DNA from: a virus
Lineage: Duplodnaviria > Caudoviricetes
Strand: one strand, 5' to 3'
Virus record (IMG/VR): IMGVR_UViG_3300028591_000150
Location: 1-64,000 of that record
DNA length: 64,000 bases
Shown here: piece by piece, positions 3,719 through 53,476 of the stretch
How the letters are laid out: every line of letters begins with the position of its first letter
How positions within the stretch are numbered: the first letter of the stretch is position 1
Position numbers and translations under genes: made by a program
The notes under the pieces: model-generated
The model's input: the letters and a program-made list of their open reading frames with translations, nothing else
What the model was told of the DNA's origin: nothing
Database searches by the model: none

Positions 3719-3753
3719 TATCCACTTCATGCCCATTCATTTGTTGAATTTTG
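3719..3753 (+). promoter_or_regulatory. Degenerate late-type promoter of the head operon (TATCCA-N21-GAATTTTG)
   Basis: Same 21-nt spacing as the TGTCCG-N21-TAnnTTTG family; 2 mismatches in the upstream box, 1 in the -7 box. Confidence 0.5.
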
Positions 3754-3781
3754 CAAACAGAAATTTCAAACACAAATATTT

Positions 3782-5485
3782 ATGAATGGACTTTTTGAAA
3801 TACTCAGCAACAAGGAGTGGATGATTCAGCAGAAGTTTCTGCACAGCATCCTGCCTACGCTGCAGTACAACATCACCAATCACGCCACACTCGGCATCGA
3901 GCGCGAGAAGAAGTCGCCCATGGCCATCGGTCAGAAGGGACAGGACTTCATTCGCGAGTATCAGGTGACACAGGATGGTAAGACGCACGGTCGTTATGGC
4001 TGGCGCGGCGACAGCCTGTCAGAGTTGAATGAACCTTTCGTCAATGTCATGCCTGTTGACGGACCTATTACCCGCAATGGCGGCGCCTGCAGCTACGGGT
4101 CGATGGAAATCCGCGACTGGATGATGGAGGCTGCTAACAATCCCGCTTGTCAGGGTCACGTATTGAACATCAACACCCCTGGCGGCAGTGCTTGGGCCAA
4201 GAACGACTTCCAGCAGGGCATCGACTATGCCCACGCCCGTGGCCAGCGCGTCATCGCCTTCATCGACGGCCTTTGCGCTTCGGCAGGTATGTATCTCGCT
4301 GCGCTCTGCGACGAGGTGTATGTAATGAACCCGAAAGACAAGCTGGGCTGCGTCGGCGTGATGGCTGCATTCTGCACCATGAAGAGCGGAGATAAGTTTA
4401 TGTCGGGCGAGACTTACCGCGAATACTACGCCACCAAGAGCATCAACAAGAATAAGAATATGCGCGACATCGCCGAGAACGACGATGCTAAGCTGCTTAT
4501 CGAAGAGCTCGACAAGCTGGAGGCAGAGTTCCGTGCCGACATGAAGGCCGCTTTCCCCAATGCCAAGGACGAGCATCTGGACGGCAAGGTATTCGATGCC
4601 AAGGACGTGATGGGCATCCTGTGCGACGGTCAGATGATGCTCGGTCAGGTAATCAGCCGCGTGTTCAACCTCGCCAACGGCACAGAGCAGCCCATCGAGC
4701 GCACTGCAGGCCGCAAGATGGGCGAGATGCAGAAGCCGTCTGCAAAGAAGGAACCGATGCAGCAGGCTCTCGCTGCTGGCGAGAAGACCGCTGATGAAAT
4801 TGACAACATTTTGTCTAACAAAAATACTGTAAACATGAAAGAACAATTCCCCGCAGTGTTTGCACTTCTCGAAGTAGAGGAGATGCAGGTTTCGGAGGAG
4901 GGCACATTCTTCAACAAGGACCTGCTCGCCACTCTGAACGCAAACATCGAGGCGGCACAGAAGGAATCTGCTGATGCAAAGGCATTGGTGGAGAGCCTGA
5001 CCGCCGAGAAGAACGAGTTGACCGCTAAGGTCGAGGAACTGACAGCGCAAGCTGAGACTAAGGAGGCAGAGCACGCCAAGGCCATCGAAGACCTGAACGC
5101 CGCTCACGCTACCGCTATCGAAGAGAAGGACAATGCCATCGCTGCACTGGAGCAGGAGAAGGCTGACCTGCAAGGCGAGGTCAATGCAAAGGCTGAAAAC
5201 ATCGAGGCCATGCAGACTGAGATGAACGGCACAAAGGAAAGCCTCGCGCAAGCAGAGGGCATCATCGCCGAGCGCGACCAGCAGATTGCCGACCTGAACG
5301 CACAGGTTTCCGAGTTGCAGAACACCCCAGGCGAAGGCGCTCAGGCTGGTGCTGCTCCCGCAAACAACGGAACTGGTGCAGAGGCGGCAGGCGTTGCCAT
5401 CAGCACACAATACGTCATGGACCCCAGCAAGTCCTATGAAGAGAACATGAAGGCCAAGAAGGAGTGGGAAGAAGCTCACAAGTAA
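3782..5485 (+). CDS. S49-family prohead protease fused to a coiled-coil scaffold domain
   Basis: S49/ClpP-like motifs INTPGGS, CASAGMYLA, GCVGV; acidic coiled-coil C-terminal third; immediately before capsid. Confidence 0.88.
   Translation: MNGLFEILSNKEWMIQQKFLHSILPTLQYNITNHATLGIEREKKSPMAIGQKGQDFIREYQVTQDGKTHGRYGWRGDSLSELNEPFVNVMPVDGPITRNGGACSYGSMEIRDWMMEAANNPACQGHVLNINTPGGSAWAKNDFQQGIDYAHARGQRVIAFIDGLCASAGMYLAALCDEVYVMNPKDKLGCVGVMAAFCTMKSGDKFMSGETYREYYATKSINKNKNMRDIAENDDAKLLIEELDKLEAEFRADMKAAFPNAKDEHLDGKVFDAKDVMGILCDGQMMLGQVISRVFNLANGTEQPIERTAGRKMGEMQKPSAKKEPMQQALAAGEKTADEIDNILSNKNTVNMKEQFPAVFALLEVEEMQVSEEGTFFNKDLLATLNANIEAAQKESADAKALVESLTAEKNELTAKVEELTAQAETKEAEHAKAIEDLNAAHATAIEEKDNAIAALEQEKADLQGEVNAKAENIEAMQTEMNGTKESLAQAEGIIAERDQQIADLNAQVSELQNTPGEGAQAGAAPANNGTGAEAAGVAISTQYVMDPSKSYEENMKAKKEWEEAHK
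4835..5485 (+). CDS. Putative nested in-frame scaffolding protein (internal start MKEQF)
   Basis: In-frame ATG preceded by AT-rich AACAAAAATACTGTAAAC inside an otherwise GC-rich gene; same layout as lambda C/Nu3. Confidence 0.6.
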   Translation: MKEQFPAVFALLEVEEMQVSEEGTFFNKDLLATLNANIEAAQKESADAKALVESLTAEKNELTAKVEELTAQAETKEAEHAKAIEDLNAAHATAIEEKDNAIAALEQEKADLQGEVNAKAENIEAMQTEMNGTKESLAQAEGIIAERDQQIADLNAQVSELQNTPGEGAQAGAAPANNGTGAEAAGVAISTQYVMDPSKSYEENMKAKKEWEEAHK

Positions 5486-5552
5486 GCCTTCGACGAACAC
5501 GGAAAACCTTTTTAATTAACTCAATTTATTCACCATCAATTCATTAAAAACT

Positions 5553-6842
5553 ATGGCATTTATCGGAATTGACAATTTGACCCATGTGAAGGACCGTCTT
5601 CAAACTAACATAATCATGGGTCCTGCGTATTACAGCGCAGACGAGTTGAAGCGCATGGCCATCAAGGTCATCACTGGTGTGGAGTTCAAGGACACCGCTA
5701 CCATCTTCAACCGCAAGGGTGGCACCGCTCGCCGCAAGGTGGTAGGTCAGTCACAGAACTCTGCACTTGGTTATCTGACCGAGCGCGTACTCGAAGCCCA
5801 CATTGTGTGGGATCACTACACAGCCAACGAGGACGACTTCCAAGAAAAGCCCGTGATGATTACCATCAACGGTTCTGCTCAGGCTTCCTTCCCCAAGACA
5901 GAGGATTTCGTCAACCAGATTGGCATTGCGTTCAACGACAACGTATTCCCCTGCATCTGGCATGGCGACGAGAACAGCGCAAAGGCCGAAATGGCTCTGT
6001 TCAACGGTCTGCACGCCAACCTCGACAAGGACATCGCCAATGGCGAAGTTTCCGAGGCTGCAGGCAACCTGATTCCCTGCGCAGCTCTCGATTCTCCTGC
6101 ATCAGAGGGCGACAGCTCTGCATGGGAAGAGTTCGTGAAGTGGTACAACAAGTGGCATCCTGCATTGAAGCGCCGCGAAACTGTTGTCTATATGAGCACC
6201 GCTTATGGCAACTATCTCGCAGATGCTTACGAGCAGAAGCATCGTAGCCACCTTGCCGTGAACTTCATCCCCGACGCAAACGGCAACTTCAAGGTACGCG
6301 AGTACCCGAAGATTACGTTCTGCCCCAGCGACGACTTCGGCGAAGGCACACGTATGATTGCCACCATCCCTGGCAACATGGAGTTTGGTGTAAACAACGA
6401 GGGCGATCAGTCATTCGTTAGCATCATGCACGGCGACCCCACTCCTGGCGGCGACCACAAGACCATCACGTTCCAGATTCAGGGCGTGTTCGGCACCCGC
6501 ATCCTCCGCATCAATGCTGCCTGCTTCGTTACCAACGGCGGCACCATCGAGGACAAGTATTGGTCTGGCGACTACCAGAAGGACAGCTTCACCGTTGTTG
6601 CCAACAATGCAGAATACGGTGACGTAAGCGTTTCTCCCGCTCCAGTGAACGGCGAGTATGCTAAGGGTACGACCCTGACCATTACCGCTACTCCGAAGGC
6701 TGGCTACAAGTTCGTGAAGTGGGCAGGCGCAAGCAACGCTACCACCGCTACGGCTAACGTCGTAACGAAGGGTCAGCCTGAAAGCGCAGTCGCTATCTTC
6801 GAGGCCGACGGCGGTTCCAGTGACGCCGGTTCCAGTGACTAA
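5553..6842 (+). CDS. Major capsid protein with C-terminal Ig-like (InlB B-repeat/Flg_new-like) domain and GSSDAGSSD tail
   Basis: Position after protease/scaffold, 429 aa, strong codon bias, C-terminal pattern TLTITATPKAGYKFVKW, followed by a stem-loop. Confidence 0.82.
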   Translation: MAFIGIDNLTHVKDRLQTNIIMGPAYYSADELKRMAIKVITGVEFKDTATIFNRKGGTARRKVVGQSQNSALGYLTERVLEAHIVWDHYTANEDDFQEKPVMITINGSAQASFPKTEDFVNQIGIAFNDNVFPCIWHGDENSAKAEMALFNGLHANLDKDIANGEVSEAAGNLIPCAALDSPASEGDSSAWEEFVKWYNKWHPALKRRETVVYMSTAYGNYLADAYEQKHRSHLAVNFIPDANGNFKVREYPKITFCPSDDFGEGTRMIATIPGNMEFGVNNEGDQSFVSIMHGDPTPGGDHKTITFQIQGVFGTRILRINAACFVTNGGTIEDKYWSGDYQKDSFTVVANNAEYGDVSVSPAPVNGEYAKGTTLTITATPKAGYKFVKWAGASNATTATANVVTKGQPESAVAIFEADGGSSDAGSSD

Positions 6843-7557: not shown

Positions 7558-7559
7558 CG

Positions 7560-7593
7560 TGTCCGCATCAATGATGAGATTTCGGTAATTTTG
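7560..7593 (+). promoter_or_regulatory. Late-type promoter of the glycosyltransferase cluster (TGTCCG-N20-TAATTTTG)
   Basis: Motif shared with six other morphogenesis promoters. Confidence 0.7.
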
Positions 7594-7613: not shown

Positions 7614-8519
7614 ATGACAATAGACTATGTAGTACCGATGGTTTTCCCACAAGATTTAATGTGGCGTCACGACTATTTGTCGGCGAATGGAATGTGGTGT
7701 GACGATAAAAGCACGCTCACCAACCAGCGCTACCGGACATGGGGGACAGAAGAGATACTTATACGTCTGATAAGGAAGAATTTGCCTTGGATTAGACGAA
7801 TACATATCCTTTTGGCGAGGCCGACACAGGTGCAGGATTGGATGAAGCCACTCCTTTCTGATGGCAAGCATCCTGATGTGAGAGTTGTATTTCATAAGTC
7901 CTTTATGCCTAAAGAGAAGTTGCCGACGTTTAACAGTCGCGCAATCGAGATGTATTTGCACCGCATTCCTGACCTTGCTCCGATGTTTCTTTATGGAAAC
8001 GATGACATGTTTCCACTAAGCCCAATGCCAGTGGATGATTTCTTCCGCAACGGTCTTCCCTGTTTGCATTTGAAGACGAAAGATTTCCCCTCACAACCAG
8101 GACAATATCACAAAGCTTGCCTCGGAGGTTTAAATTTCGTCGCGAGAAACTTCGGGAAGCACTATTGCACCACATGGCTTCACACAGGGCATAGCATTGC
8201 GCCGATGCTCCGTGCAACGATAGAAATGTTCTGGCAAAGATGGCCTGAAGATATGGAACGTAGTGTGACGACCTTCCGTCAGTCTTGGAATTTTAACCAG
8301 TATATCTACCTGTGGTGGCAATATCTATCAGGGCAGTACATAGATCATCACCCCGAGCGTGACTACGTGGCTACTAACCGACATTCTCCAGACGAGATTC
8401 GCAAGGCAATCGCAACAACAAATGGCATCCTCTGCATCAATGACCACGACGGTGCAGACGATTTGGAGCCATACGCACGAGTAGCAAGAGAAGGGCTGCG
8501 GTTTTGTCTCTCTAAATAA
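7614..8519 (+). CDS. Stealth-family hexose-1-phosphate transferase
   Basis: CR1-like IDYVVPMV; CR2 motifs NLPWIRRIH, PTFNSRAIE, FLYGNDDMF; CR4-like CIND. Confidence 0.88.
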   Translation: MTIDYVVPMVFPQDLMWRHDYLSANGMWCDDKSTLTNQRYRTWGTEEILIRLIRKNLPWIRRIHILLARPTQVQDWMKPLLSDGKHPDVRVVFHKSFMPKEKLPTFNSRAIEMYLHRIPDLAPMFLYGNDDMFPLSPMPVDDFFRNGLPCLHLKTKDFPSQPGQYHKACLGGLNFVARNFGKHYCTTWLHTGHSIAPMLRATIEMFWQRWPEDMERSVTTFRQSWNFNQYIYLWWQYLSGQYIDHHPERDYVATNRHSPDEIRKAIATTNGILCINDHDGADDLEPYARVAREGLRFCLSK

Positions 8520-8528
8520 GAAATCAAC

Positions 8529-9239
8529 ATGACACATATTACAGTCCTTACCGTCCACTTCAATACCCCTCGCATGATGGAGGCGTGCATCCGCTCTTTG
8601 GCCAAGCAAACGCCAGGCTGTCGTGTAGTTGTGATAGACAATAGCGACAAACAGCCTTTCAATGCTAAAAGATGTAAGGGCGTAGTCGCAAAAATTGAAG
8701 TGATAGACAATACCCGTGGTCAGCTCATCAACTTCGACCAGTGGCTACAACAATTCCCAGACCGAAAGCCAGCCAGCAGCAACTACGGCTCGCCAAAGCA
8801 TTGCAAGACCATCGACCTTTGTTTCGACATGCTGCCCGACGGCTTTATACTCATGGACTCCGACGTCCTCTTCAAGCGCGACATCACCCCGCTATGGGAC
8901 GAGACAAAGGCGTGGGTGGGCGAGCCGTTCCTCGACACGCCGAAGGGTGTTCACGTCATGCGCCTGCTGCCTTTCTTGTGCTACGTCAATGTGCCGATAT
9001 GCCGCGAGCACGGCATCCGCTATTTCAATGCCGAGTGGATGTGGCACCTCACGGCGCTCAGCCCGCAGAAATGGCACGACACAGGCGCATGGTTCTACAA
9101 GGACTGCATGGCCAAGCAGATGCCATACACAGCTGTCAAGACCGCCGACTACATAGAACATTATTTTCACGGCAGTCACGCCAACCTGAACGGCGGCATG
9201 TCGGAGTGGCTGCGCAAGTATAGACATCTTTGGATATGA
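8529..9239 (+). CDS. GT2-like (GT-A fold) glycosyltransferase
   Basis: VLTVHFNT...VVVIDNS N-terminus; DxD motif MDSDV. Confidence 0.8.
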   Translation: MTHITVLTVHFNTPRMMEACIRSLAKQTPGCRVVVIDNSDKQPFNAKRCKGVVAKIEVIDNTRGQLINFDQWLQQFPDRKPASSNYGSPKHCKTIDLCFDMLPDGFILMDSDVLFKRDITPLWDETKAWVGEPFLDTPKGVHVMRLLPFLCYVNVPICREHGIRYFNAEWMWHLTALSPQKWHDTGAWFYKDCMAKQMPYTAVKTADYIEHYFHGSHANLNGGMSEWLRKYRHLWI

Positions 9240-9991
9240 AAGTAGAAGTTTTCACCCTTTGTTGGAATGAGATTGACGTGCTGCCGTGGGTCGTTGACTA
9301 CTGGCAGAAGTATGCAACCCACGTGACGGTGTTCGACAACGGCTCGACCGACGGCAGCACGTGGTATCTTAGCAAGTTCGACTGGATAACGGTCAAGGAG
9401 TTTCTTACCGAGGGCATGAACGATGCTGTGCAGGCCGACATCAAGAACAAGTGCTGGAAAGGCTCTGATGCCGACTTCGTGGTGGTGTGCGACATGGACG
9501 AGATGCTCCTTGCGCCCGACATTCTGAAATCGCTGGAGAACATGAAGGCCAGCGGAGCCACCATCTGCAAGCCTGTGTGGTACGAGCTACAGGCTGAGGA
9601 GCGACCGAAATACGAAACTGGAAAGATGCTCCACGAGACGTCGCCGATGGCACGCCCGTTCCAGGACTTCTCGAAAGCCATCATCTTCGACCCCAAGGCC
9701 ATCACTAATATCGGCTACTCCGTCGGTGCCCATAAGTGCGACCCGCAAGGCAACGTGAAGTGGTACGAGGGGCAGGATATCTATGCCCTGCACATCAACC
9801 ACAACCTTTCCTTTGACTACAAGATTCAGCGTTACCGCTCGATGAACGCCAACCTCAGTCAGAAGAACAAGAACCAGCGATGGGGCATACACTACGGCTT
9901 CGACGAAGGGCTGCTGCGCCGAGCATGGGAAGAGGATGCCAAAAAACTTGTGGACTTCTGCCAGATAATGAAAGGATGCGGCAATGGGTAG
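9230..9991 (+). CDS. GT2-like glycosyltransferase
   Basis: FDNGSTDGS; DFVVVCDMDE DxD motif; overlaps upstream stop. Confidence 0.85.
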   Translation: MDMKVEVFTLCWNEIDVLPWVVDYWQKYATHVTVFDNGSTDGSTWYLSKFDWITVKEFLTEGMNDAVQADIKNKCWKGSDADFVVVCDMDEMLLAPDILKSLENMKASGATICKPVWYELQAEERPKYETGKMLHETSPMARPFQDFSKAIIFDPKAITNIGYSVGAHKCDPQGNVKWYEGQDIYALHINHNLSFDYKIQRYRSMNANLSQKNKNQRWGIHYGFDEGLLRRAWEEDAKKLVDFCQIMKGCGNG

Positions 9992-10775
9992 AGTGGCGGC
10001 AATGGCCCTGTGTCGGCTGGGCAATCAGATGTTCATAGCGGCGGCAGCACGTACCTTCGCCAGTCGCACAGGACGTGAGTTCTACGGCTTGGTATATACC
10101 GATGTAGCGAGCGACTTCCCCCGTGAGCAGCAGGAGCGCATCATGCGGAACATCCGCTACATGCGCCCCGAAGAGGTGCGCGGGTATTACCACGTGCCGC
10201 ACGGCAAATATCTCTGCAACGGCTTCCCTGAGACCGACGCCGCCGACGTGCTGTTGGCCGACTTCTTCCAGGATGCCACCTGCATTGACCGCGACATTGC
10301 CTACGACCTCTTTGCACCATACGACAGCATCCTCACGGAGATTCGCAGTCTCTATGGCGATGTAAGCGACCGCGTGTGCATCAACGTGCGGCGCGGCGAC
10401 TACCTCTTGCGCGGCAACCCCGAACTGGGATTCCGCACGCTGTCGCAGGAAGACATCTGCGCCATCCTCGACGAGCACTTCCCGCACGACAAGGTGCTGT
10501 TTGTCTCTGATGATATAGAATGGTGTAAGGCGCATTTCACCGGTCCGCGCTTCGCCTTTGCCGACAAGCCCTGCCAGTACAAACCTGAGATGGACCTCTA
10601 CCTGCAGACCCAATGTAAGGCCAACGTCATCAGCAACTCCACCTTCTCGTGGTGGGGTGCCTACCTGAATGCCCGTTCCGAAAAGGTGGTCTGCCCCTGG
10701 CCGTGGTTCAACGGTGACAAAATCAGCCCAATGACCAACATCCTCCCGCCGTCATGGATAAAATGGAAAAAATAA
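9984..10775 (+). CDS. GT11 alpha-1,2-fucosyltransferase
   Basis: RLGNQMF, NVRRGDY, FVSDD and ISNSTFSWWGAYL motifs. Confidence 0.9.
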   Translation: MGRVAAMALCRLGNQMFIAAAARTFASRTGREFYGLVYTDVASDFPREQQERIMRNIRYMRPEEVRGYYHVPHGKYLCNGFPETDAADVLLADFFQDATCIDRDIAYDLFAPYDSILTEIRSLYGDVSDRVCINVRRGDYLLRGNPELGFRTLSQEDICAILDEHFPHDKVLFVSDDIEWCKAHFTGPRFAFADKPCQYKPEMDLYLQTQCKANVISNSTFSWWGAYLNARSEKVVCPWPWFNGDKISPMTNILPPSWIKWKK

Positions 10776-11476
10776 CCGTCTGCATCGTCAACTACAACAC
10801 GCCCGAGCTGACTGCCGCAGCCGTCCGCTCGCTGTGGAAGCATCACCCAAACTGTCGCATTGTCGTCTTCGATAATAGCGACAGACTTCCTTCCGGTGGG
10901 CTTAATAGGTTTAATAGGCAGATTGAAATTGTTGACAACACCAAAGGGCAAATTATTGACTTCGATAGTTACCTTCAGCAGTTTCCTAATAAAGAGACAG
11001 GTTCTGTCAACAAGAGCAACTATGGTTCCACCAAACACGCACTAAGCGTGCAGTGGATGATAGACAATACTGATGAGCCGTTTGTTCTGATGGACAGTGA
11101 TGTGCTCGTTTTTCAGTCAATCAACTGCTTTTGCAATCCTCGTTACGCATTCGTTGCGCATATCGGATGTAATACATATAGACGGTTTGGTCTTGAAATC
11201 TACCGCGCAGAGCCATTGCTTTGCTATATCAATGCCCCAATGCTCCGTAAGTACGGCATCCGCTACTTCAATCCCGATTATATGTGGGCGCTCAGTAATG
11301 TCAGTCCAAACAATAGATACGACACTGGCGCATGGCTCCTGAAGGACGTGCAGGAACATAATTTGCCATATCTCGACGTAGATACCAGTCATTATATCCT
11401 GCACTTTGGTCATGGTTCATGGAAGGAGAAGGACTATCGCCAATGGCTTGAATGGTATCGTGATTTATGGCAATAA
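10754..11476 (+). CDS. GT2-like glycosyltransferase, paralog of 8529..9239
   Basis: IVNYNT...VFDNS, MDSDV; shares NYGS, GIRYFN and DTGAW with 8529..9239. Confidence 0.8.
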   Translation: MDKMEKITVCIVNYNTPELTAAAVRSLWKHHPNCRIVVFDNSDRLPSGGLNRFNRQIEIVDNTKGQIIDFDSYLQQFPNKETGSVNKSNYGSTKHALSVQWMIDNTDEPFVLMDSDVLVFQSINCFCNPRYAFVAHIGCNTYRRFGLEIYRAEPLLCYINAPMLRKYGIRYFNPDYMWALSNVSPNNRYDTGAWLLKDVQEHNLPYLDVDTSHYILHFGHGSWKEKDYRQWLEWYRDLWQ

Positions 11477-11477: not shown

Positions 11478-11512
11478 TGTCCGTTGTATTATTTTTCGAT
11501 GCGCTATCTTTG
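11478..11512 (+). promoter_or_regulatory. Late-type promoter (TGTCCG-N21-TATCTTTG)
   Basis: Exact motif and spacing. Confidence 0.75.
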
Positions 11513-11543: not shown

Positions 11544-12215
11544 ATGTATATCGAACCCTGTTGTGCCGAAAGACAACTCGGCCATCTTTTTAGAGAAGAG
11601 CGTGGTCATGTCATAGCATTTCAGACGAGCGGCGATGTGACTTTTGAACATTGGATGAAAGCCGTTATGCTCATGTCTGGCGACCGCCCGAGAACACTCG
11701 CCCTTGCCGTACCTATCTTAACAGGCGCAATGATGCGACCACTGGCAAGGTATATGCGATTGGAGTGGATAGCAAAGTTAAGGCTAATGACCACCGACCC
11801 GATAGCGTATAATGTCATTTCGGATTTTGCAGGCATGGTCGGATGTGATGTCAATGTACTATTGGAGCGCATTGAACTTGCCTCAGACTCCAGCATTCCA
11901 GACGGGATGATAGCTTTCAGCGGACCCGATGGCACGGTGGCCATTCAGGGTCGGATCTATGATGAAGTAACGCCAGGGCTGTCTCTCTATGCCGGTGTGT
12001 TTGGCAGAACCGACAGCTCAGGTGTCCGTACTATAATGGATGCCTGGAACGCCAATTTCAAGGCACGGCGGTATGAAGTAGCATTACTTTCGCAACAAAC
12101 AGAACAGCCAAAGAAGAAAAAGACAACCCGTAAAAAGAACAAGAACAATGAAACTAAACCTATGGAAACGATGGCAGGAACATCGCAAAAAAAAGAAACA
12201 AGAGAAGCAAAATAG
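11544..12215 (+). CDS. Hypothetical protein with basic C-terminal tail
   Basis: 223-aa ORF downstream of late-type promoter. Confidence 0.75.
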   Translation: MYIEPCCAERQLGHLFREERGHVIAFQTSGDVTFEHWMKAVMLMSGDRPRTLALAVPILTGAMMRPLARYMRLEWIAKLRLMTTDPIAYNVISDFAGMVGCDVNVLLERIELASDSSIPDGMIAFSGPDGTVAIQGRIYDEVTPGLSLYAGVFGRTDSSGVRTIMDAWNANFKARRYEVALLSQQTEQPKKKKTTRKKNKNNETKPMETMAGTSQKKETREAK

Positions 12216-12759: not shown

Positions 12760-12895
12760 AAAAAAATAGTGGGTCTCGGCTCCTTCATACTCTCTACTTT
12801 ATTACTACGGCACATCTGCACCTCACCGAGACCCACAAATGGGACTTCTTGTGTGTGCAGATGTGCTATTTTTTAATTGTGTAATAAAGTAGAGA
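12760..12895 (-). ncRNA. Candidate structured small RNA with pseudoknot
   Basis: Three perfect pairings (15, 12, 11 bp), -7 box TATATTTG at 12899-12906 on minus, terminal U run. Confidence 0.6.
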
Positions 12896-13006
12896 TTGCA
12901 AATATACTAATAAGTGTGTGAACAACAAAAAGAAAAATCAATTTTCTTTCCTTTTCCGAACAAAATTATATTTCACGACAGCATAATTAGTTTAAGTTTT
13001 AATATT

Positions 13007-13243
13007 ATGAGTATGAAACGAGCAGATTTAATTCTATTTAATGAGGAAATGATGAGGAAACTGCGAAAAGCAGGTGTACGCCCTGATGATTATAAGTACG
13101 CAGACCTATATCGCGAATATCAGAGGCTCGTCCTTACAGATAGTAGCCGCAAAGCCATTATCCTTTCATTGGCGCAAAGGTATGGTTATACTGACAGGCA
13201 GGTGTATAATATCATCAAACACATGGAAAAGAATGTCGATTAG
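13007..13243 (+). CDS. Small HTH DNA-binding protein (Mor C-terminal-like)
   Basis: LAQRYGYTDRQVYNIIK helix-turn-helix pattern. Confidence 0.7.
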   Translation: MSMKRADLILFNEEMMRKLRKAGVRPDDYKYADLYREYQRLVLTDSSRKAIILSLAQRYGYTDRQVYNIIKHMEKNVD

Positions 13244-13944: not shown

Positions 13945-13979
13945 CAAAGGTACAACCGAAATGAATTGGAACACGGACA
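13945..13979 (-). promoter_or_regulatory. Late-type promoter of holin genes (TGTCCG-N21-TACCTTTG)
   Basis: Exact motif and spacing on minus strand. Confidence 0.75.
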
Positions 13980-16277: not shown

Positions 16278-16481
16278 TTATTGTTTGAAGTGATTGATGA
16301 TTTTCGATTTCACAAAGGCATTCTCGTCCCAATGCGATATGCCGTCGGCTATTTTACTTCCGGTGACGGGTATTCCGAGTGCGCCCATATCGTTGACAAA
16401 CTGGCCGAGAGCGTGTTGGGCGTGTTGTGCCTCCTGCTCGTCTTCAGCATAGATTTTGATTGTGATAGGATATACATTCAT
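16278..16481 (-). CDS. Hypothetical protein (operon gene C)
   Basis: 67 aa, tight spacing. Confidence 0.7.
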   Translation of the reverse strand: MNVYPITIKIYAEDEQEAQHAQHALGQFVNDMGALGIPVTGSKIADGISHWDENAFVKSKIINHFKQ

Positions 16482-16492
16482 AATGCCGTGAA

Positions 16493-16849
16493 TTAGTTAA
16501 TAGGTGGGAGCGGGCTATCGACGGGTGGTGTGTCTGGAACCGCTCCGCGCTTCTTGATGATGCCCTGGATAAAGTCGTAGGCCTGTGCCAATGTACCTTG
16601 GTTCTCTTTAAGCCAACCCATGATGCCGTTGACGGTTTGGGCTGTGTTCTGCTGCCATGTCAGTGGTACAGGATCATAGTCTGGCAAGTCGGGCATGTCG
16701 CCTGCAAAGAAGTCATAGAGTTCCTTCGCTTCTTTCAAGTCACCTTTTGCACAAAAGAGACATTGCAGTTTCAGACTGCTCTTACTCGTTGCTCTTATAC
16801 CTTGCTGTACCATCTGCATACGTCGTTTCTTTTTTCCATAACCAAACAT
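16493..16849 (-). CDS. Hypothetical protein (operon gene B)
   Basis: 118 aa, Pro-rich C-terminus. Confidence 0.7.
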   Translation of the reverse strand: MFGYGKKKRRMQMVQQGIRATSKSSLKLQCLFCAKGDLKEAKELYDFFAGDMPDLPDYDPVPLTWQQNTAQTVNGIMGWLKENQGTLAQAYDFIQGIIKKRGAVPDTPPVDSPLPPIN

Positions 16850-16874
16850 ATTGCCGTGAATTAGAGTTTAGGGA

Positions 16875-16915
16875 TGAAGGGCAGCGTTCTTGAAATAGAA
16901 AGTCGCCGCCCTTCA
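16875..16915 (-). terminator. Intra-operon stem-loop after gene A
   Basis: TGAAGGGCAGCG/CGCCGCCCTTCA stem, no U run. Confidence 0.55.
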
Positions 16916-16922
16916 AGGCCAT

Positions 16923-17477
16923 TTAGCCGTTGCAACCGCAGCCAGGGCAAGGACAGGGCTGTGGAGCCGAGTAGATGCTCACTGGAGTGGGGTTCAGGCT
17001 AGCGCGACCCGTCACGAAATCCTCGTAGGTTTTCGTCATCACGCTGTTCACAGCGCTCAATTCTGCTGCTTGCTGCGCAGTGAGAGTGCCTTGCTGACTG
17101 CCGCTTACGGTGTCAGTGATGGTCTGCGTGATAGTCTGGTCGCCGTTGATACGTTCTGCACGCTCTGCAGCAAACAGACTGGTCAACTGGTCGAGCTGGC
17201 GTTGGGTAGCGCCGTTCTGCAGTGCGGCAATCTCCTTAGCGGCAATAGCCACCTCCTTTGCCTGGTTAGCCTTGGCGTTGCCGTACATAGGACCGAAGAT
17301 CCATGCACCAACACCGATGGCAGTGCCGACGGTGCCGAGAACAAGTCCAGCCACACCGATGCCGCTTGTGTGGTGGCGGTTCTGCATGTAGCCCACCTTC
17401 ACCTGCTCGTAAGGTGACATGCTGCCTTCGCCTCCCATAGACTTCAAGGCCATCAAGTCTTGCATTTCAAGTGCCAT
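16923..17477 (-). CDS. Gly-rich hydrophobic segment, coiled coil and C-terminal CPCPGCGC protein (operon gene A)
   Basis: GIGVAGLVLGTVGTAIGVGAWIFG; start MALEMQD at 17477. Confidence 0.8.
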   Translation of the reverse strand: MALEMQDLMALKSMGGEGSMSPYEQVKVGYMQNRHHTSGIGVAGLVLGTVGTAIGVGAWIFGPMYGNAKANQAKEVAIAAKEIAALQNGATQRQLDQLTSLFAAERAERINGDQTITQTITDTVSGSQQGTLTAQQAAELSAVNSVMTKTYEDFVTGRASLNPTPVSIYSAPQPCPCPGCGCNG

Positions 17478-17550: not shown

Positions 17551-17585
17551 CAAAATTACCCCAAACATTGCACAAAAAACAAGAT
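17551..17585 (-). promoter_or_regulatory. Host-type promoter of the Cys-rich operon (TTG-N21-TAATTTTG)
   Basis: -7 box TAATTTTG with TTG rather than TGTCCG at the upstream position. Confidence 0.55.
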
Positions 17586-27310: not shown

Positions 27311-27345
27311 CAAAGGTAGCGCACATCTTTTTATATATACGGACA
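27311..27345 (-). promoter_or_regulatory. Late-type promoter of portal operon (TGTCCG-N21-TACCTTTG)
   Basis: Exact motif and spacing. Confidence 0.75.
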
Positions 27346-27384
27346 TAAGGTGCAGACGGACAGAGGTGAATCAGGCATGTTTTA

Positions 27385-27419
27385 TGTCCGTATGCTTTTG
27401 CTTCAATGCGCTAACTTTG
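27385..27419 (+). promoter_or_regulatory. Late-type promoter of packaging operon (TGTCCG-N21-TAACTTTG)
   Basis: Exact motif and spacing; divergent from 27311..27345. Confidence 0.75.
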
Positions 27420-27446: not shown

Positions 27447-28946
27447 ATGGCACAGAAATTTTATCAGGACATGACCGCCGAGGAACAGACACGGTGGGTG
27501 AAGGAATTTGCAACTATCGTCGAAGAACATGGCGAGCAGATTACGCAGTTCGGTAAAGGGAAAGAGCAGATGACCGCAGAGGACCTTCCTTGGGTGAAAG
27601 GTCTTTTCGATATACTTTGCGCATTCCCGTTTGCACAGGACTTTTGCGAGAAGGCAATGCGATACGGCGACTTTTCGTCACGTGTAAGCCGTCTGTCAAT
27701 ATATGTGGATAAGGTAAAGGACACGCTTGCTGACGGACTGGTGATGACAGATACAAGCGGCAGGGCTGTGGCTTTTGTATCGCCATCTTCGCCATTACGA
27801 CGCCGTGGAAGACCAACCAAGGAAGAAGTCGCTGCAAGATTGCGCGGCGAAACATTGGTTCTGCCAGACAACTCGCCTGAGAACGAAAAGCGTCGCCGTA
27901 TCGCGAAGCTGCTCGGACTGGAAGTGGTGATAAATGGTGAAGCACCCCGCGAGAAGAATAATGCGGAATTGAAAGCAGAACGTGAAGAAAAACGCCGCAA
28001 GGAAGAAGCAATGAATCCGTCGCTTTTTACCGATGAAAAGCATGATAACGAAGTCATTAAGGAATCCCAGGATAAAGAAGCTCCCGCATTACAACAGTCG
28101 CCAACGATGTCAATGGGCGACATCTATCAGGACCGCATCGAGAATGACCGTATGCACCTGAGCGATATCGCATGGTTGTGCTCGAAAGAGTTGCAGAATA
28201 GAATCGCATTGGTGCGTAATCAGCGTACAGCATTCGGTGATGCAGCACAAACGGCCAAGGTGCTTGCAGAACGTGGAGGAGCCCAGGAAGAGATTGCGGC
28301 CTACGCCAAGCAAGCCGAAGAAGCACGCGAAGCTTACGAGAGCACCTACAAGGCAGTAGATAACGAACTGGCAGTCCTGCACAAACGGCTCATGATTGAT
28401 ATCCCATACACAGGTAAATTCAAGAACAAATTCAAAGGTGTAGATGTTGAAAAGGTTTTGCACATCACACGTCCTTACTATGAAAAAATCCGTAAGGAAG
28501 ACCCGACAATCGACGAGCGAATTAAAACGCTCATCGAGCAGGACAGTCCTGAATATGCCGCAAAAATGAAGGCCGACGAAGAAAAGAAGCAGGAAGTTAC
28601 CGAACTGCTCCGCTATCTGAAACGTAAGGACAAGCCAAACGTGAAGCAACGCATTGAAACAATGGAAAAGCGCTATGCCAGATTGGTTGAACTTCTTGGA
28701 GAAGAAGCAAAGGTGTATCGCCCCATTGTTGATGCCGCCATTCAGGACTACGATAAGAACTACAAGAAACTCGACGTAGAACCAACAGATACGGCTAACA
28801 AGAAACTTGAAAAGGTTGCCGCAACAGGCAATGCCGCTGCTATGGAAAAGAAACCGGCAAAGCAAGAAAACAAGAAAGCAACAAATCAAGTAAGCAAGAA
28901 ACCTGCGAAGCAACAAATCCAAAAGACAAGAAAGGAGAATAAATAA
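27447..28946 (+). CDS. Helical coiled-coil protein with AT-hook-like RRRGRP
   Basis: Start MAQKFY at 27447; Lys-rich tail. Confidence 0.75.
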   Translation: MAQKFYQDMTAEEQTRWVKEFATIVEEHGEQITQFGKGKEQMTAEDLPWVKGLFDILCAFPFAQDFCEKAMRYGDFSSRVSRLSIYVDKVKDTLADGLVMTDTSGRAVAFVSPSSPLRRRGRPTKEEVAARLRGETLVLPDNSPENEKRRRIAKLLGLEVVINGEAPREKNNAELKAEREEKRRKEEAMNPSLFTDEKHDNEVIKESQDKEAPALQQSPTMSMGDIYQDRIENDRMHLSDIAWLCSKELQNRIALVRNQRTAFGDAAQTAKVLAERGGAQEEIAAYAKQAEEAREAYESTYKAVDNELAVLHKRLMIDIPYTGKFKNKFKGVDVEKVLHITRPYYEKIRKEDPTIDERIKTLIEQDSPEYAAKMKADEEKKQEVTELLRYLKRKDKPNVKQRIETMEKRYARLVELLGEEAKVYRPIVDAAIQDYDKNYKKLDVEPTDTANKKLEKVAATGNAAAMEKKPAKQENKKATNQVSKKPAKQQIQKTRKENK

Positions 28947-29737: not shown

Positions 29738-29882
29738 ACAGATGTATATAGTAAAGAAGAAAGACCCTTGGGGAAACTTTGTGGATATGTTTCACGCCCA
29801 CCACGGCTATATAGCTTTCAACTTCTACAAGTTATTAGAAAAACGCGAAGGGAAAAACAATGTAATAATCGTTCAAAAATGA
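29730..29882 (+). CDS. Small hypothetical protein
   Basis: 50-aa ORF overlapping previous stop. Confidence 0.35.
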   Translation: MYEQMYIVKKKDPWGNFVDMFHAHHGYIAFNFYKLLEKREGKNNVIIVQK

Positions 29883-29927
29883 AACATGCAAATACCCTGT
29901 TGCAGCAGACAGTTGGATGATTTTAAC

Positions 29928-29952
29928 CACGAATTACACGAATTACACGAAT
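29928..29952 (+). repeat. 9-bp tandem repeat (CACGAATTA)x~3
   Basis: Directly abuts the MTase start codon. Confidence 0.8.
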
Positions 29953-30607
29953 GGCAAAGGATTGGAAAGGAAACGGCAATAGCATCTATAAGACGCTGGG
30001 CGCATCGAACCATACGAACGAAGAGCGAGAGGTGGATGATTTCTACGCTACTTCGCCAAAAGCCATTGATATTCTTGTTGGCTATCCGCACATTTCTTTG
30101 CCAAAGTACATCTGGGAACCTTCGTGCGGCAGCGGTTGCCTGTCGAAAAGACTGGAGCAGAAAGGTCATGTCGTGACATCTACTGACCTTATTGACCGTG
30201 GCTACGGACAGGGGGGGGTAAACTTCTTCGAGCAGTCAAAAATGCCAGACGGCTGTACTGCTATCGTAACAAATCCACCTTACAAATACGCTACAGAATA
30301 CGTTCTGCACGCTCTCAGGCTGCTGTCAGAAGGCGGTATTCTATGCCTATTCCTGAAAACGACATTCGCAGAGGGAAAGGAACGCTACTACAAAATCTTC
30401 GGTCCTCAACGGCCACAGTTCGTTCTTCAATGCTCAGAGCGCATACTATGTGCCAAGAATGCCGATTTCGACTACATGCAAGCTCATGGCGGCTCAGCGG
30501 TAAGCTATGCCTGGTGGATATGGCGCAAGGGCTACAAGGGTGCCACAACACTCGACTGGATTAACCACTCGAATACAGAATATGTGGAACAGTTGTTGCT
30601 CTTCTGA
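29951..30607 (+). CDS. DNA adenine methyltransferase
   Basis: DDFYATS, motif I WEPSCGSG, motif IV TNPPY; G8 tract at 30211-30218 in frame. Confidence 0.85.
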   Translation: MAKDWKGNGNSIYKTLGASNHTNEEREVDDFYATSPKAIDILVGYPHISLPKYIWEPSCGSGCLSKRLEQKGHVVTSTDLIDRGYGQGGVNFFEQSKMPDGCTAIVTNPPYKYATEYVLHALRLLSEGGILCLFLKTTFAEGKERYYKIFGPQRPQFVLQCSERILCAKNADFDYMQAHGGSAVSYAWWIWRKGYKGATTLDWINHSNTEYVEQLLLF

Positions 30608-30648
30608 TTTTCGCTTCAATTTAAAACTACAAAATAAAAATAAGCTTT

Positions 30649-30912
30649 ATGACACCACAACAACGCAAAGCCATCGAGATACTGAATGGCATTAGAAACA
30701 ATTTAGGCGAGAATTATGAACCTGTAATCAACGAAGACGATTATTTCTTTCTGCTGTCGTTCATCATTGACAAGCCGCAGGAGATAAGTGTACCGACACC
30801 GTATTATCCAGTTATTCAGCCGTGGCAACCACCAACGATTCAGCCATACTATTATCAGCGATGGGAAGTTACTTGTAAAATTGATGACAATTTTCAAAAA
30901 TCTGAAGTGTAA
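30649..30912 (+). CDS. Hypothetical protein
   Basis: 87 aa, Pro/Tyr-rich C-terminus. Confidence 0.6.
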   Translation: MTPQQRKAIEILNGIRNNLGENYEPVINEDDYFFLLSFIIDKPQEISVPTPYYPVIQPWQPPTIQPYYYQRWEVTCKIDDNFQKSEV

Positions 30913-31090
30913 ACTCGGCTTTCACGAGCCTATACGATATCATCAGACGTTCAAGCTCAAATGCCGCACCACGAACAAAGGACGCAGCAAAAAGCGATGG
31001 ATGACTTTGGCAAGAGAAATCGTCAATATAACTTACTGCGGAAGATGCGGGAAGACACTTGAAACGAAACGACGCTGGCGGTGGAGATAA
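30884..31090 (+). CDS. Small Zn-ribbon-like protein
   Basis: CKLGFH...CGRCG; start MTIFK at 30884. Confidence 0.5.
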   Translation: MTIFKNLKCKLGFHEPIRYHQTFKLKCRTTNKGRSKKRWMTLAREIVNITYCGRCGKTLETKRRWRWR

Positions 31091-31115
31091 TTGTTTTATA
31101 GATTATTATAATAAT

Positions 31116-31457
31116 ATGGCAAAGCGAAAGAAAAAACGTTACTGGGACGATTGGGACGACGAACCCAACGTGGATGGCGGACTTCCTGAGCCGGATGTGG
31201 AAAATATTAGCCTGCGCGACTTTATTGTTCCACAAAAAGTCTCGGCCTTTGTACACGAATATGAACATTGCAACGAGGGCGATCCTGGCTATGAACAGTT
31301 CGATGACGGACGCCTGCGAGAGGTGTTCAAGGCTTATGTGTGTGCTCTTGGCGACCCGCTAAAGTTATATCTCGATGACCTCATGATGGCAGGCTTCATA
31401 ATGAACATCAGTATGGCGACAGGAGAACCGTGTATCTTCGCAAGACGAAAAAATTGA
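31116..31457 (+). CDS. Hypothetical protein
   Basis: Start MAKRKK after AT-rich leader; precedes TerL. Confidence 0.65.
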   Translation: MAKRKKKRYWDDWDDEPNVDGGLPEPDVENISLRDFIVPQKVSAFVHEYEHCNEGDPGYEQFDDGRLREVFKAYVCALGDPLKLYLDDLMMAGFIMNISMATGEPCIFARRKN

Positions 31458-31469
31458 ACATTTAACAAT

Positions 31470-33470
31470 ATGGCAGACAGCGTAGATATCTACATGAACC
31501 GACCGCAAAGGATGAACCACATCATCAAGGCGCACGATGTCAGAGGTGTAGCCTCTCGTCGTGTCGGTAAGACGGAAAGCATTGGAGATCGCGTGTTTCA
31601 GGTCGCTAAAAGTATGCCGCAAGGCTTGGGAGCATGGGGAGGCATCAGCAGAGCACAGTTGTACTGCAAACTGATTCCTGGCGCTTTGAGTGCAATGAGC
31701 CGTTTCTACGGTCTGACAGAGGGTACGCACTATGGCGCAGGCAAACCGCCGTCGTGGGTACCGAAACCTATTGCAAACATGCGCAACTACTCCGACTCCA
31801 TTTGGTTTGCTAATGGGTTTATATGGCAAATGATCAGCATGGCGCAGGTGGCCAGCGCCAACTCCTACACTTTCAACCACGGTCTCTTCGACGAGTGTCG
31901 TTTCGCCAAGAAACAGAAAATATACGAGGAACTGATGCCAGCAATCAGCGGACAGACACATCCGTTCGGCGACAAGGCATTCAGCCGTGAGAACCCCTTC
32001 TACTGCGGCACCTACTTTGTAAGCGATGCTGCACTGACGTTGAAGCAGTCGTGGCTGGAGCAGGAAGAGGACAAGTTGGAGGAACATCCGCAGATTGGTC
32101 CGTTCACGGATATGACATATAGACAGATACAGGACGAATTGGAGGAGTTCGCAAAAAAAGTCATTAAGTACAACGACCTTATCTACTATGCGAAGAAGGA
32201 AGGCAGGAGAATTATAGAGGTAACGCCTGAGAAGAAGCGCTCGATTAAGGCGCTCTACGATGCGATTGAAAAGCGCGAAGGCGGTTTCAAGATTATCCCC
32301 AAACATCAACACGCCGACTCGAAGGGTACATTGCAGATGCTTGTATCATATAAGTTGGTGACAGAGGAAGATGCCGAACTGCTCTATTCCCACTCATACC
32401 TTATCACCAAGGATGACCAGTTTGAGATGATGAAGCTGAACATCCCGAACAACACCTACCTGAAACGCATTCAGCAGTTGCGTTCATGGGCATTCTACTG
32501 TTGGAGGGCATCGACGCTTGACAATGCCGATGTCGTAGGCTTCGAGTACATCGCACAGATGAAGCGTGACCTGTCACCTGGTTTGTTCTCCGTGTCTATC
32601 CTTAATGAGAAGAAAACCAAGGCCAACGAAGGTTTCTATACCAACCTCGACATAGAAAACGTACATGGCTACATTCCCGATGACGCGCCCTGCATAGACA
32701 AGAGCATACATATTGCCAGCAGCGAGTATGTGAAAAGCGGCATGAAGTACAAAGAAGACTACGAAACCTACGACTTCACAAGGCTCGGGAAGGTGGACGA
32801 TTGCACTCAGGATGGCGACGTGATAGATGCGCTGCCGCTGCACATTGCCTTTGACTACAATGCCAATATCACGACCGTAGTGACAGGTCAGGTGCAGCGG
32901 CGCGACGGTGTGGAATGTCTGTGTGTGCTTGGCTCCATGTACGCCCTCTATGAGCGTAAGATACACGCACTCGTAGAGGACTGGAACCGCTATTATGCGC
33001 CGCACAGGGGCAAAAACCGCACCGTATATTATTACTACGACTCAACGGCCAAGTTCCGTGGCTATGCCATCGAGAAGAGCGATGACTTCAAGGACACAAT
33101 CATCAAGGACCTGCGTCGCTACGGTTGGGATGTCGTTGGTATAGACATGGGAACGCCTATGCTGCATCACGACAAATGGCGAATCATCAACGAAGCACTC
33201 GGCGGCTTCTCATCTCCTGCTATCCGCATCAACCAGGTGAACAACGAGGAACTCATCATCGCCATGCAGATGACTGAAATTCGCGAGCGCTACAACGGTA
33301 CACAGAAGACCATCAGCAAGGACAAATCCGGCGAGAAACGGGCTGACACAGAAGATGGCGTGCCACTTCAGAACCGCACTGACATCACAGATGCTTTTGA
33401 CTCGCTTTTCATCGGTGTGAAGATGTTCAGGTTCAGGACAAGTCTGCTGATGATGCCTAACGGGAAGTGA
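31470..33470 (+). CDS. terL: Terminase large subunit
   Basis: Walker A RRVGKT, Walker B FDEC, nuclease IAFDYN and DITDAFD. Confidence 0.9.
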   Translation: MADSVDIYMNRPQRMNHIIKAHDVRGVASRRVGKTESIGDRVFQVAKSMPQGLGAWGGISRAQLYCKLIPGALSAMSRFYGLTEGTHYGAGKPPSWVPKPIANMRNYSDSIWFANGFIWQMISMAQVASANSYTFNHGLFDECRFAKKQKIYEELMPAISGQTHPFGDKAFSRENPFYCGTYFVSDAALTLKQSWLEQEEDKLEEHPQIGPFTDMTYRQIQDELEEFAKKVIKYNDLIYYAKKEGRRIIEVTPEKKRSIKALYDAIEKREGGFKIIPKHQHADSKGTLQMLVSYKLVTEEDAELLYSHSYLITKDDQFEMMKLNIPNNTYLKRIQQLRSWAFYCWRASTLDNADVVGFEYIAQMKRDLSPGLFSVSILNEKKTKANEGFYTNLDIENVHGYIPDDAPCIDKSIHIASSEYVKSGMKYKEDYETYDFTRLGKVDDCTQDGDVIDALPLHIAFDYNANITTVVTGQVQRRDGVECLCVLGSMYALYERKIHALVEDWNRYYAPHRGKNRTVYYYYDSTAKFRGYAIEKSDDFKDTIIKDLRRYGWDVVGIDMGTPMLHHDKWRIINEALGGFSSPAIRINQVNNEELIIAMQMTEIRERYNGTQKTISKDKSGEKRADTEDGVPLQNRTDITDAFDSLFIGVKMFRFRTSLLMMPNGK

Positions 33471-48548: not shown

Positions 48549-48583
48549 CAAAGGTACGGCAAAGTGAAAATAACAGACGGACA
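48549..48583 (-). promoter_or_regulatory. Late-type promoter of tail-tip operon (TGTCCG-N21-TACCTTTG)
   Basis: Exact motif and spacing. Confidence 0.75.
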
Positions 48584-51885: not shown

Positions 51886-52545
51886 TTATGCCTTATCGAA
51901 TTGAGAGCCTGAAAGTGGATATAGTCTGCTCTGTCCACCCAATTCGATGCCTTTTGTAACATCACTGTAAACCTTCGTACCACCGTATGCTGCTATCCGA
52001 CGATGGCCATGGTCGTACAGGGTACCGTTCGCTATCACCACCTCGGCTGCATTATAAGTATGACACTGCATGTCACCATCTGCGTGAGCAAAGTTATGTA
52101 CAGACACAATCGTATCACGACTTTCACAATGACAATAAGCGTGTCCTCGCAAGGTTATTTTCGAGCCAGGCGCACGACAATAAACCTGAGCATTGTCGGT
52201 GGCAGATACCTCGGCACTTGTAAAGATATAAGCCTTAGCAGTTCCAGAAACATTGACTAACTTGTCCGGATTGCTTATAATGACATATCCTTCATCTCGG
52301 TTCTCGTTGACATAGACGCCGCCATTGCGGAACTCTTCAATCATCGGTTGGCCAACAACAGACAACTGCTTGACCATAATGTCGGCATACCGCGAACGGT
52401 ACACATCGTCCCAGTTTTCTTTCCACACCTGCATAATCTGCACGATGTTTTCCGTCTTCATCAGTGCTTCAAAACCATGCCTACAGGCATTTCGCTCGTG
52501 ACAAGCCACGCGGCATATCTCTTTGAGTTGTTCGAAGTTGTTCAT
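51886..52545 (-). CDS. Hypothetical protein with short beta repeats
   Basis: VSATDNAQV / VHNFAHA-type repeats. Confidence 0.7.
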   Translation of the reverse strand: MNNFEQLKEICRVACHERNACRHGFEALMKTENIVQIMQVWKENWDDVYRSRYADIMVKQLSVVGQPMIEEFRNGGVYVNENRDEGYVIISNPDKLVNVSGTAKAYIFTSAEVSATDNAQVYCRAPGSKITLRGHAYCHCESRDTIVSVHNFAHADGDMQCHTYNAAEVVIANGTLYDHGHRRIAAYGGTKVYSDVTKGIELGGQSRLYPLSGSQFDKA

Positions 52546-52555
52546 ACTATTATCA

Positions 52556-53401
52556 TTATTTCTTTTTGCTGATGCGTTCCATCTCTGCTGCTTTATCGGC
52601 CATGTTCTGCAGTTTCTGTAAAGTTACACTGTAAGTCTCGTCGCGCTGGTCTTTCTCGCTGGTCTTGTATTCGTCAGCAAGTGTTGCGGTTACATGGTTG
52701 TAGAAGTCCCAAGGGGATTCCTGACGCTGACCACGCTTCACGGGTCGTGCTTTGAAAACTTTTGGGAACTTTTGCGCAAGCTGCTGCATCAAAGCACTCC
52801 ACCAGAAGAGAATGACCTGCCACTTGACAGGCGAAAAGTTCTCGAATGTATTTGGGTTTACGGGTGATCCGTCTGACGAGCGAAACAGGACAGCAAGGAA
52901 CTGGCGTTGTGCTTCGCCTGCATCAAGTCTTGCATTGTTGTTACGAACGTATATCTGCATCCAGTCACTGAGCAGGCGGTAATCGTTCCATGAATAGCCG
53001 TCAAGCAATGGCGATGCGCCTTGCAAAGTGACGTTGCCGATAATCAGCTTCGGATAAGGAAAGTTGAACAGTGGGCGGGCTTTTTCGTCAGTAAGCCATG
53101 AAAGTTGTTTGCACAGAGAGACAAGTTGCCCCACGTTAATAGGCCAAGCCTCTTCGTCCTGCGTGCGTTTTACTAGCCACTCTTGTCCGTCTCTCACTTC
53201 TTCATTTTGAGATGGCACTATGGAGATGCCATTAACGGCAAGGACGATTTTCAACTTTACCTTGTCCCAATCAAACTGGTGATAACGTCCAACAAGCAGT
53301 TGCTCGCTGATGATTTCTGCAGCAATGTACTCCAGTTCATCAGTTGTGCAGCGGTTCCAGGCATTTGGAAGGTGCAGATGTATATGTCGTTGTTCGTTCA
53401 T
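52556..53401 (-). CDS. Putative tail assembly chaperone
   Basis: LPNAWN N-terminus, FPKVF motif; first gene after late-type promoter. Confidence 0.45.
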   Translation of the reverse strand: MNEQRHIHLHLPNAWNRCTTDELEYIAAEIISEQLLVGRYHQFDWDKVKLKIVLAVNGISIVPSQNEEVRDGQEWLVKRTQDEEAWPINVGQLVSLCKQLSWLTDEKARPLFNFPYPKLIIGNVTLQGASPLLDGYSWNDYRLLSDWMQIYVRNNNARLDAGEAQRQFLAVLFRSSDGSPVNPNTFENFSPVKWQVILFWWSALMQQLAQKFPKVFKARPVKRGQRQESPWDFYNHVTATLADEYKTSEKDQRDETYSVTLQKLQNMADKAAEMERISKKK

Positions 53402-53441
53402 CGTTTCTTTATTCCGTCAACTCTCACTTGTTTTACAGACG

Positions 53442-53476
53442 CAAAGTTAAAAAAAGCCCGCCCAAGTGGACGGACA
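53442..53476 (-). promoter_or_regulatory. Late-type promoter (TGTCCG-N21-TAACTTTG), overlapping a likely terminator of the replication operon
   Basis: Exact motif and spacing; GTCCGTCC/GGGCGGGC hairpin plus T run overlaps it. Confidence 0.7.

Follow-up and report, generated by a model that had tools for sequence, protein, structure and literature searches.

A promoter class private to a family of Prevotella-type phages, in which a lineage-variable box stands in for the -33 element of the host

How the phages of Prevotella and other Bacteroidales regulate their genes has, to our knowledge, hardly been studied. Full-text literature searches found no phage-specific promoter class described for phages of the Bacteroidota (Prevotella and other Bacteroidales), and a 2026 preprint on Bacteroidales prophages merely hypothesises an activator of middle-late genes. 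The sites considered here lie in the genome of a Caudoviricetes virus, the 92,307-bp IMG/VR record IMGVR_UViG_3300028591_000150, estimated to be 94% complete, the first 64 kb of which form the stretch analysed (hereafter the window). Each consists of a box, TGTCCG, separated by 20 or 21 nt from the -7 element TAnnTTTG of Bacteroidota promoters. These sites constitute a genuine promoter class, conserved within and private to the phage family that carries it, in which the box replaces the -33 element used by the host. The favoured explanation, considered reasonably likely, is that the class belongs to a single family of approximately 90-130-kb temperate phages with rumen Prevotella-type hosts and is read by a factor acting in trans that is most probably encoded by the phage.

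The window contains six exact matches to TGTCCG-N21-TAnnTTTG, whereas 100 dinucleotide-preserving shuffles averaged 0.00. As neither half is enriched singly (35 instances of TGTCCG against 28 expected, and 41 of TAnnTTTG against 37), the signal resides in their combination and fixed spacing. All six, together with an N20 site at 7560(+) and a degenerate site at 3719(+), stand exactly where the original prediction had placed them (Table 1). The full record holds nine exact sites with N20 or N21 spacing, a TGTCCA variant at 58526(-) found by a one-mismatch search and the one degenerate site before the head gene; two of the exact sites, a divergent pair at 82098(-) and 82168(+), the latter with N20 spacing, are outside the window. 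TGTCC is present at N20/N21 in 10 of the 77 TAnnTTTG boxes of the genome, where 0.14 would be expected (binomial P ~5e-16), and TGTCC at -27 comes first when the 5-mers preceding all -7 boxes are tabulated by position without bias. The sites are all located between genes, each facing the next gene, the ATG of which is 43-79 nt away.

Promoters recognised by the primary sigma factor of the Bacteroidota, sigma-ABfr, are composed of a -33 TTTG and a -7 TAnnTTTG, numbered such that T is at -12, A at -11 and the final G at -5 (PMC6847099). The nine exact sites have this -7 element; the head-gene site has GAATTTTG. The -33 TTTG, which would precede the -7 box by 19-21 nt, is absent from the box promoters, in which CCGT is found in its place. 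The phage also possesses promoters of the host type, TTTG-N20-TAnnTTTG, at genome positions 79693(-), 79858(+) and 87140(-), outside the window. Measured from the TA of the -7 box, their TTTG spans -24 to -21 and TGTCCGT spans -27 to -21; on the scale of PMC6847099 the box consequently covers approximately -39 to -33 and so replaces the -33 element. The box promoters resemble the canonical Bacteroidota promoter in their -7 box and in its spacing to the upstream element, differing from it in having, instead of TTTG, the word TGTCCG(T), which is not used at this spacing by host genomes. The sequence just downstream of the -7 box looks alike in both classes.

Relatives were retrieved through alignment of homologues of the phage's 499-aa protein (27447-28946, +), which yielded 11 loci from IMG/VR together with a single contig from a Prevotella metagenome-assembled genome (MAG) of sheep rumen. 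Among these, G002 is complete (111,678 bp), G003 is 95% complete and G001 76% complete; the phage under study is G000. G002 has 11 exact TGTCCG-N20/21 sites. At the same offset, G003, G004, G005, L013 and L018 carry (T)TGTCCCA or AGTCCCA, G001 and L016 carry ATGTC(A/T/C)G, and more distant loci, retrieved via the family of a 268-aa protein, again have TGTCCG or TGTCCC. Within its own genome each box type reaches high significance (P from 1e-10 to 1e-23). The layout is kept across related genomes and the word changes by lineage (TGTCCG, TGTCCCA or ATGTCnG). Searches of GenBank phages found no close relative of the phage.

Comparison of orthologous genes shows the box and the -7 box to be retained in front of them with unrelated spacers, the box always being of the type of the genome in question. 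For instance, orthologues of the genes in the 27345(-) operon have their own lineage's box in six relatives, and the G006c orthologue of the 48583(-) operon carries the same box. In several core proteins, namely the head protease, the portal candidate and the 499-aa protein, similarity is higher across box types than inside a type (for the protease, up to 78% identity between types compared with a minimum of 46% within a type); as core proteins cross box types in this manner, box type is a property of the genome, not merely something inherited with each downstream gene. The orthologous head gene in G002 and L012 is preceded by a weakened ATATCCG-N21-GAAnTTTG, and type-2 relatives have a full box there. 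The degenerate 3719 site is thereby supported, since three type-1 phages share the weakened form before the head gene.

The composite motif is not a feature of host promoters. In the 2.4-Mb Prevotella MAG, all four matches to TGTCCS-N20/21-TAnnTTTG are on the phage contig, and 60 other Prevotella genomes yield 48 matches against 80 for a reversed-pattern control, hence there is no enrichment; the density is around 100 matches per Mb in the phage and around 0.3 per Mb in the hosts. These results count against a host factor, either a primary-sigma paralogue or an activator, as the reader of a box whose variant would reflect the host species infected: a sigma paralogue should leave a visible host regulon, and in the MAG containing a related phage contig every match is on that contig. 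Such paralogues do exist, with two or three sigma-70 proteins that include region 3 (approximately 290-360 aa) encoded by Prevotella genomes (G008, G019, G023 and G060). A host factor is also favoured by the splitting of tail-fibre-like and other host-interaction proteins by box type; overall it seems an unlikely explanation.

The lack of enrichment of the motif in host genomes is likewise unfavourable to there being no extra factor, the box then being a cis variant tolerated or preferred by the host primary sigma and inherited in the phage family. The similarity of the -7 box and downstream region in the two promoter classes would fit such a variant. Nevertheless, three lineage-specific versions are each kept genome-wide, and the same phage has TTTG at its immunity-region promoters, where a Cro/CI-type helix-turn-helix (HTH) gene of the HTH_3 family lies between divergent TTTG-N20 promoters. 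A cis variant is thus regarded as improbable.

The genes headed by the class were originally predicted to be late morphogenesis units. The class is not confined to such units: it also includes a lysis cassette, a methylase, glycosyltransferase cargo genes and, weakly, replication, and so marks nearly everything outside the immunity/early region (Table 1). The labels 'portal' and 'packaging' gained no support from Pfam, PHROGs or a PDB profile search: PDB-sequence profile searches were empty for the portal and terminase candidates, and the 666-aa protein shows just a Walker-A-like motif. The tape measure assignment is based on tape measure matches, and the 476-, 1277- and 2351-aa proteins, which match unnamed PHROGs, are probable tail or fibre proteins. 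With respect to the weak member at the replication operon, G002 has a full TGTCCG promoter at 48559(+), which precedes the orthologous initiator-like gene by approximately 300 nt; a short open reading frame (ORF) intervenes. Hairpins resembling terminators, with a T run, are directly upstream of the boxes at 3719, 7560, 13979 and 82098, whereby the operons are insulated from one another and each requires its own start.

Table 1. Box promoters of the phage, the genes that follow them and features referred to in the text.
Position (strand)	Site or feature	Genes downstream or remark
3719..3753 (+)	degenerate TATCCA-N21-GAATTTTG	before head-maturation-protease-like gene 3782-5485 (phrog_53 match)
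7560..7593 (+)	TGTCCG-N20-TAATTTTG	before Stealth/glycosyltransferase cargo operon 7614-11476 (Stealth_CR2 match)
11478..11512 (+)	TGTCCG-N21-TATCTTTG	before 11544-12215, 223 aa, no assigned function
13007..13243 (+)	78-aa protein, C-terminal Mor/C-like HTH	best candidate box reader
13945..13979 (-)	TGTCCG-N21-TACCTTTG	before holin-like gene 13919-13584 (phrog_1296 holin match)
17551..17558 (-)	-7 box of a boxless promoter, for contrast	before conserved small-protein operon 17477-14891
27311..27345 (-)	TGTCCG-N21-TACCTTTG	before operon 27282-17784, from 610-aa portal candidate to tape measure protein
27385..27419 (+)	TGTCCG-N21-TAACTTTG	divergent partner of 27345(-); before 27447-33470
27447-33470 (+)	operon	499-aa conserved protein to 666-aa terminase-like protein
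48549..48583 (-)	TGTCCG-N21-TACCTTTG	before operon 48528-33480: 476, 1277 and 2351 aa
53442..53476 (-)	TGTCCG-N21-TAACTTTG	before 53401-49133: proteins of 281 aa (tail-assembly-chaperone-like), 219 aa and 907 aa
58492..58526 (-)	weak member, TGTCCA-N21-TACATTTG	heads replication operon: initiator-like, DnaC-like, clamp
82098 (-)	outside window	before lysis cassette with M15 peptidase
82168 (+)	outside window	before DNA methylase

In the mechanism proposed, RNA polymerase containing the host primary sigma would still read the -7 box, and the 7-bp asymmetric box at approximately -39 to -33 would stand in for the host TTTG. A trans factor dedicated to the box, and most probably encoded by the phage, would read it as either a class-II-type activator or a substitute for sigma region 4, and would turn on scattered non-early operons of both strands together. 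We infer that the boxes mark transcription starts, and that these need a factor. The original prediction had likewise invoked a factor replacing -33 recognition: a private, conserved and lineage-variable box at -33 would fit one.

A precedent is found in the middle promoters of T4, in which a MotA box is combined with a sigma-70 -10 element and the activator MotA acts with AsiA in what is termed 'sigma appropriation'. As in T4, the host downstream element is kept, the upstream element is swapped for an asymmetric phage box at a fixed distance, and the promoters are many, scattered and, as proposed here, switched on jointly. Unlike T4, the box, the host phylum and the sigma type (sigma-ABfr, with -33/-7 elements) are different, the phage is temperate, and late and lysis genes are included. 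The MotA and AsiA families were not seen in Pfam scans of around 100 phage ORFs (in one scan, among the 25 commonest families listed), in which divergent analogues would be missed.

The alternative of a highly divergent phage sigma factor reading both elements might be entertained because many of the phage's proteins have no detectable family. Yet a six-frame search of the 92-kb record at E<=1 found no Sigma70_r2, and the sole Sigma70_r4_2-like match is the Cro/CI-type HTH_3 protein of the immunity region, which led to the rejection of this candidate. Furthermore, as the -7 box is identical to that of the host, such a sigma factor would have to mimic host region 2, making this a very remote prospect.

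Alternatively, the -7 box alone may drive these promoters, with a phage repressor bound over -33 silencing the lytic operons in the lysogen; the scattered C1 operators of phage P1 provide the model. The phage is indeed temperate, given its integrase and Cro/CI-type HTH gene, and almost every lytic function, replication among them, falls within the class. Some promoters, moreover, have extra tandem boxes, and the -33 element is weakly conserved across Bacteroidota promoters generally and dispensable in many (PMC6847099). Against a repressor are the 7-bp asymmetric word, its strict orientation and N20/21 phasing and its location exactly at the position of sigma region 4, a rigid geometry that occlusion would not require, as well as logos without a dyad or second half-site. 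An operator function is therefore judged no less improbable than a cis variant.

The tandem boxes are exemplified by a second TGTCCG at 27357..27362 (-), in the same orientation as, and upstream of, the 27345(-) promoter. Extra boxes of the same orientation are also present in the corresponding intergenic region of G002, G006c and G001, where they precede the main box by approximately 10-30 nt. The promoters concerned are those of the 499-aa gene or of the neighbour divergent from it, and the extra boxes may reflect the binding of more than one protomer.

The original prediction listed three ORFs as possible regulators, at 2130-2936, 13007-13243 and 27447-28946. The second of these, encoding 78 aa, is the best candidate for a reader of the box. 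It matches phrog_17790, a family without an assigned function, over its full length (E 2.2e-15), a family also matched by its homologues in G002, G004 and L094, and has weaker matches to 'late transcriptional activator' PHROGs (E 4e-4). Pfam Mor (PF08765) is matched with an E value of 0.003 and 18 bits, below the 24.9 cut-off, and hhalign against Mu Mor and C gives a probability of 79% (E 1.7e-5) over the last 24 residues, the HTH, alone. Mor is matched by 21 of 60 family members, the best with an E value of 9e-5 and all below the gathering score. The best PDB profile match, which is not significant (E 0.12), is the HTH of sigma-32 region 4.2. When 1.84 billion representatives were searched by profile, at least 752 clusters were recovered, with proteins typically of 75-85 aa. 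Using tblastn and a home-made hidden Markov model, homologues were identified in G002, G003, G004, G005, G006c, L070/71, L078 and L085, and they are present in all four near-complete relatives. In G002, G003 and G004, the HTH gene is directly upstream of the orthologues of 16923-16278, the most conserved genes of the family. Family resemblance makes it plausible that the protein is a late-type activator.

Mor and C of phage Mu are dimers, possessing an N-terminal dimerisation domain and binding dyad sites. They are small phage HTH activators that bind over the -35 region, and the candidate has a C-terminal HTH that weakly resembles theirs; however, Mor and C are 129-140 aa long, whereas the candidate is 78 aa and the N-terminal dimerisation domain is unmatched. 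Similarly, the box overlaps the -33 position, but the logos show a 7-bp asymmetric word rather than a dyad. Mu has one plus four such promoters and this phage approximately 11. In the middle and late promoters of Mu (AF083977), as in those described here, the downstream element is usable and a functional upstream element is lacking.

Several observations weigh against a phage-encoded reader and against this candidate in particular. The weak conservation of the -33 element (PMC6847099) means that promoters with a -7 box only may fire unaided, the box then possibly being an operator, and the splitting of tail-fibre-like and other host-linked proteins by box type fits a host-determined box equally well. 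The HTH gene was not found in G001, which is 76% complete, and the Mor similarity extends over just 24 residues, with every Pfam match below the gathering score. In addition, divergence in the HTH family greatly exceeds that of the box: G003, G004 and G005 have TGTCCCA in common, yet identity among their HTH proteins is only 17-19% and the recognition helices differ, and G002 and G000 share TGTCCG with an HTH identity of 36%. The ORF does encode a Mor/C-like HTH, but HTH and box do not co-vary cleanly. That the 78-aa protein reads the box is accordingly put forward as a tentative possibility.

A more specific version is that the lone HTH proteins of approximately 77 aa (phrog_17790) act as a monomeric substitute for sigma region 4 at the -33 box, reprogramming the primary-sigma holoenzyme of the Bacteroidota, possibly with neighbouring, nearly invariant small proteins as the partner that binds RNA polymerase. 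The 118-aa protein encoded next to the HTH gene in relatives is up to 92% identical across the family. This would amount to a two-part sigma appropriation with a fold unrelated to MotA/AsiA, and is rather doubtful, slightly more so than the host factor.

Pfam scans of the approximately 100 phage ORFs revealed no other transcription factor. A screen for protein families that split by box type was topped by the 281-aa and 268-aa families. The 268-aa protein (2130-2936, +) splits perfectly by box type, but is a weak candidate, with no Pfam or PHROG match and no recognisable fold: Foldseek comparison of its confident model (pLDDT 82) with the PDB returned nothing at E<=0.001, VIA-align gave Z<=5, at noise level, and the ESM Atlas held no match. 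With tblastn, no homologue was found in G003, which is 95% complete, or in G005, the syntenic place included; the suggestion that it is the regulator is accordingly a weak one. The 281-aa protein (52556-53401) was also set aside. In BFVD its model is matched by uncharacterised phage proteins (best E 1.4e-18), and there is weak similarity to tail assembly chaperones; these matches, with its position in the tail module of G002, lead it to be read as structural.

The third suggested regulator, the 499-aa protein, is itself behind a box and has no regulator signature. It is highly charged and helical, with an invariant, AT-hook-like RRRGRP..EE stretch. Its homologues number more than 470, and neither Pfam nor PHROG gives a match. 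A DNA-binding role in packaging or as a scaffold is possible.

The box, in rigid phase with the -7 element, provides a marker, requiring only sequence, of lytic operons and new cargo in a large family of uncultured phages, and a concrete handle on how they redirect the unusual sigma-ABfr polymerase. Its lineage-specific variants are natural specificity swaps and, were the reader to be found, orthogonal and switchable promoter-activator pairs for the engineering of Bacteroidales could follow.

Some features of the phage and its relatives stand apart from these questions. The Stealth/glycosyltransferase operon (7614-11476, +) has no orthologue in G002, G003 or G004, yet is headed by the family box, and the cargo appears to have been wired into the phage's own promoter class. 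Within the replication operon, 54803-55045 (-) encodes an 80-aa acyl-carrier-protein-like ORF (PP-binding, E 1e-10). Besides its integrase and Cro/CI-type HTH_3 protein, the phage encodes ParA with a small ribbon-helix-helix-like partner; this occurrence of a tyrosine integrase with the ParA pair (genome positions 73295-74488 and 76806-77984, outside the window; L052) combines integration and partition functions in one phage.

The trio of genes at 16278-17477 (-), encoding 184, 118 and 67 aa, comprises the most conserved genes of the phage family and has a boxless promoter. Identity of the 184- and 118-aa proteins reaches 70-94% between phages in which that of the structural proteins is 45-65%; no family match was found for any of the three. 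A hydrophobic segment rich in Gly and a C-terminus rich in Cys characterise the 184-aa protein.

The HTH gene is adjoined by a large hairpin-rich region (12760-12906, -), with a minus-strand -7 box just before the start of the gene, which in G000 takes the form TTTG-N19-TATATTTG at 12899-12906. Both hairpins and -7 box recur in L070, G006c, G002, L078, G003, G004, L085 and G005. No Rfam family matches the structured region, which looks like a conserved divergent structured RNA and may control the HTH gene. The same arrangement is found at the same position in phages of the SERKV subfamily of the HTH proteins (480+ loci in phages of approximately 30-60 kb), which have no TGTCC box, and the HTH proteins of which hence probably have other targets. 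In L094 (8025-10240) and around 480 IMG/VR loci, the phrog_17790 HTH gene is located just after a reverse transcriptase gene (phrog_1423, E 5e-118); in the same group of approximately 30-60-kb phages, it is followed by thymidylate synthase and methylase genes, with a promoter directly 3' of the HTH gene.

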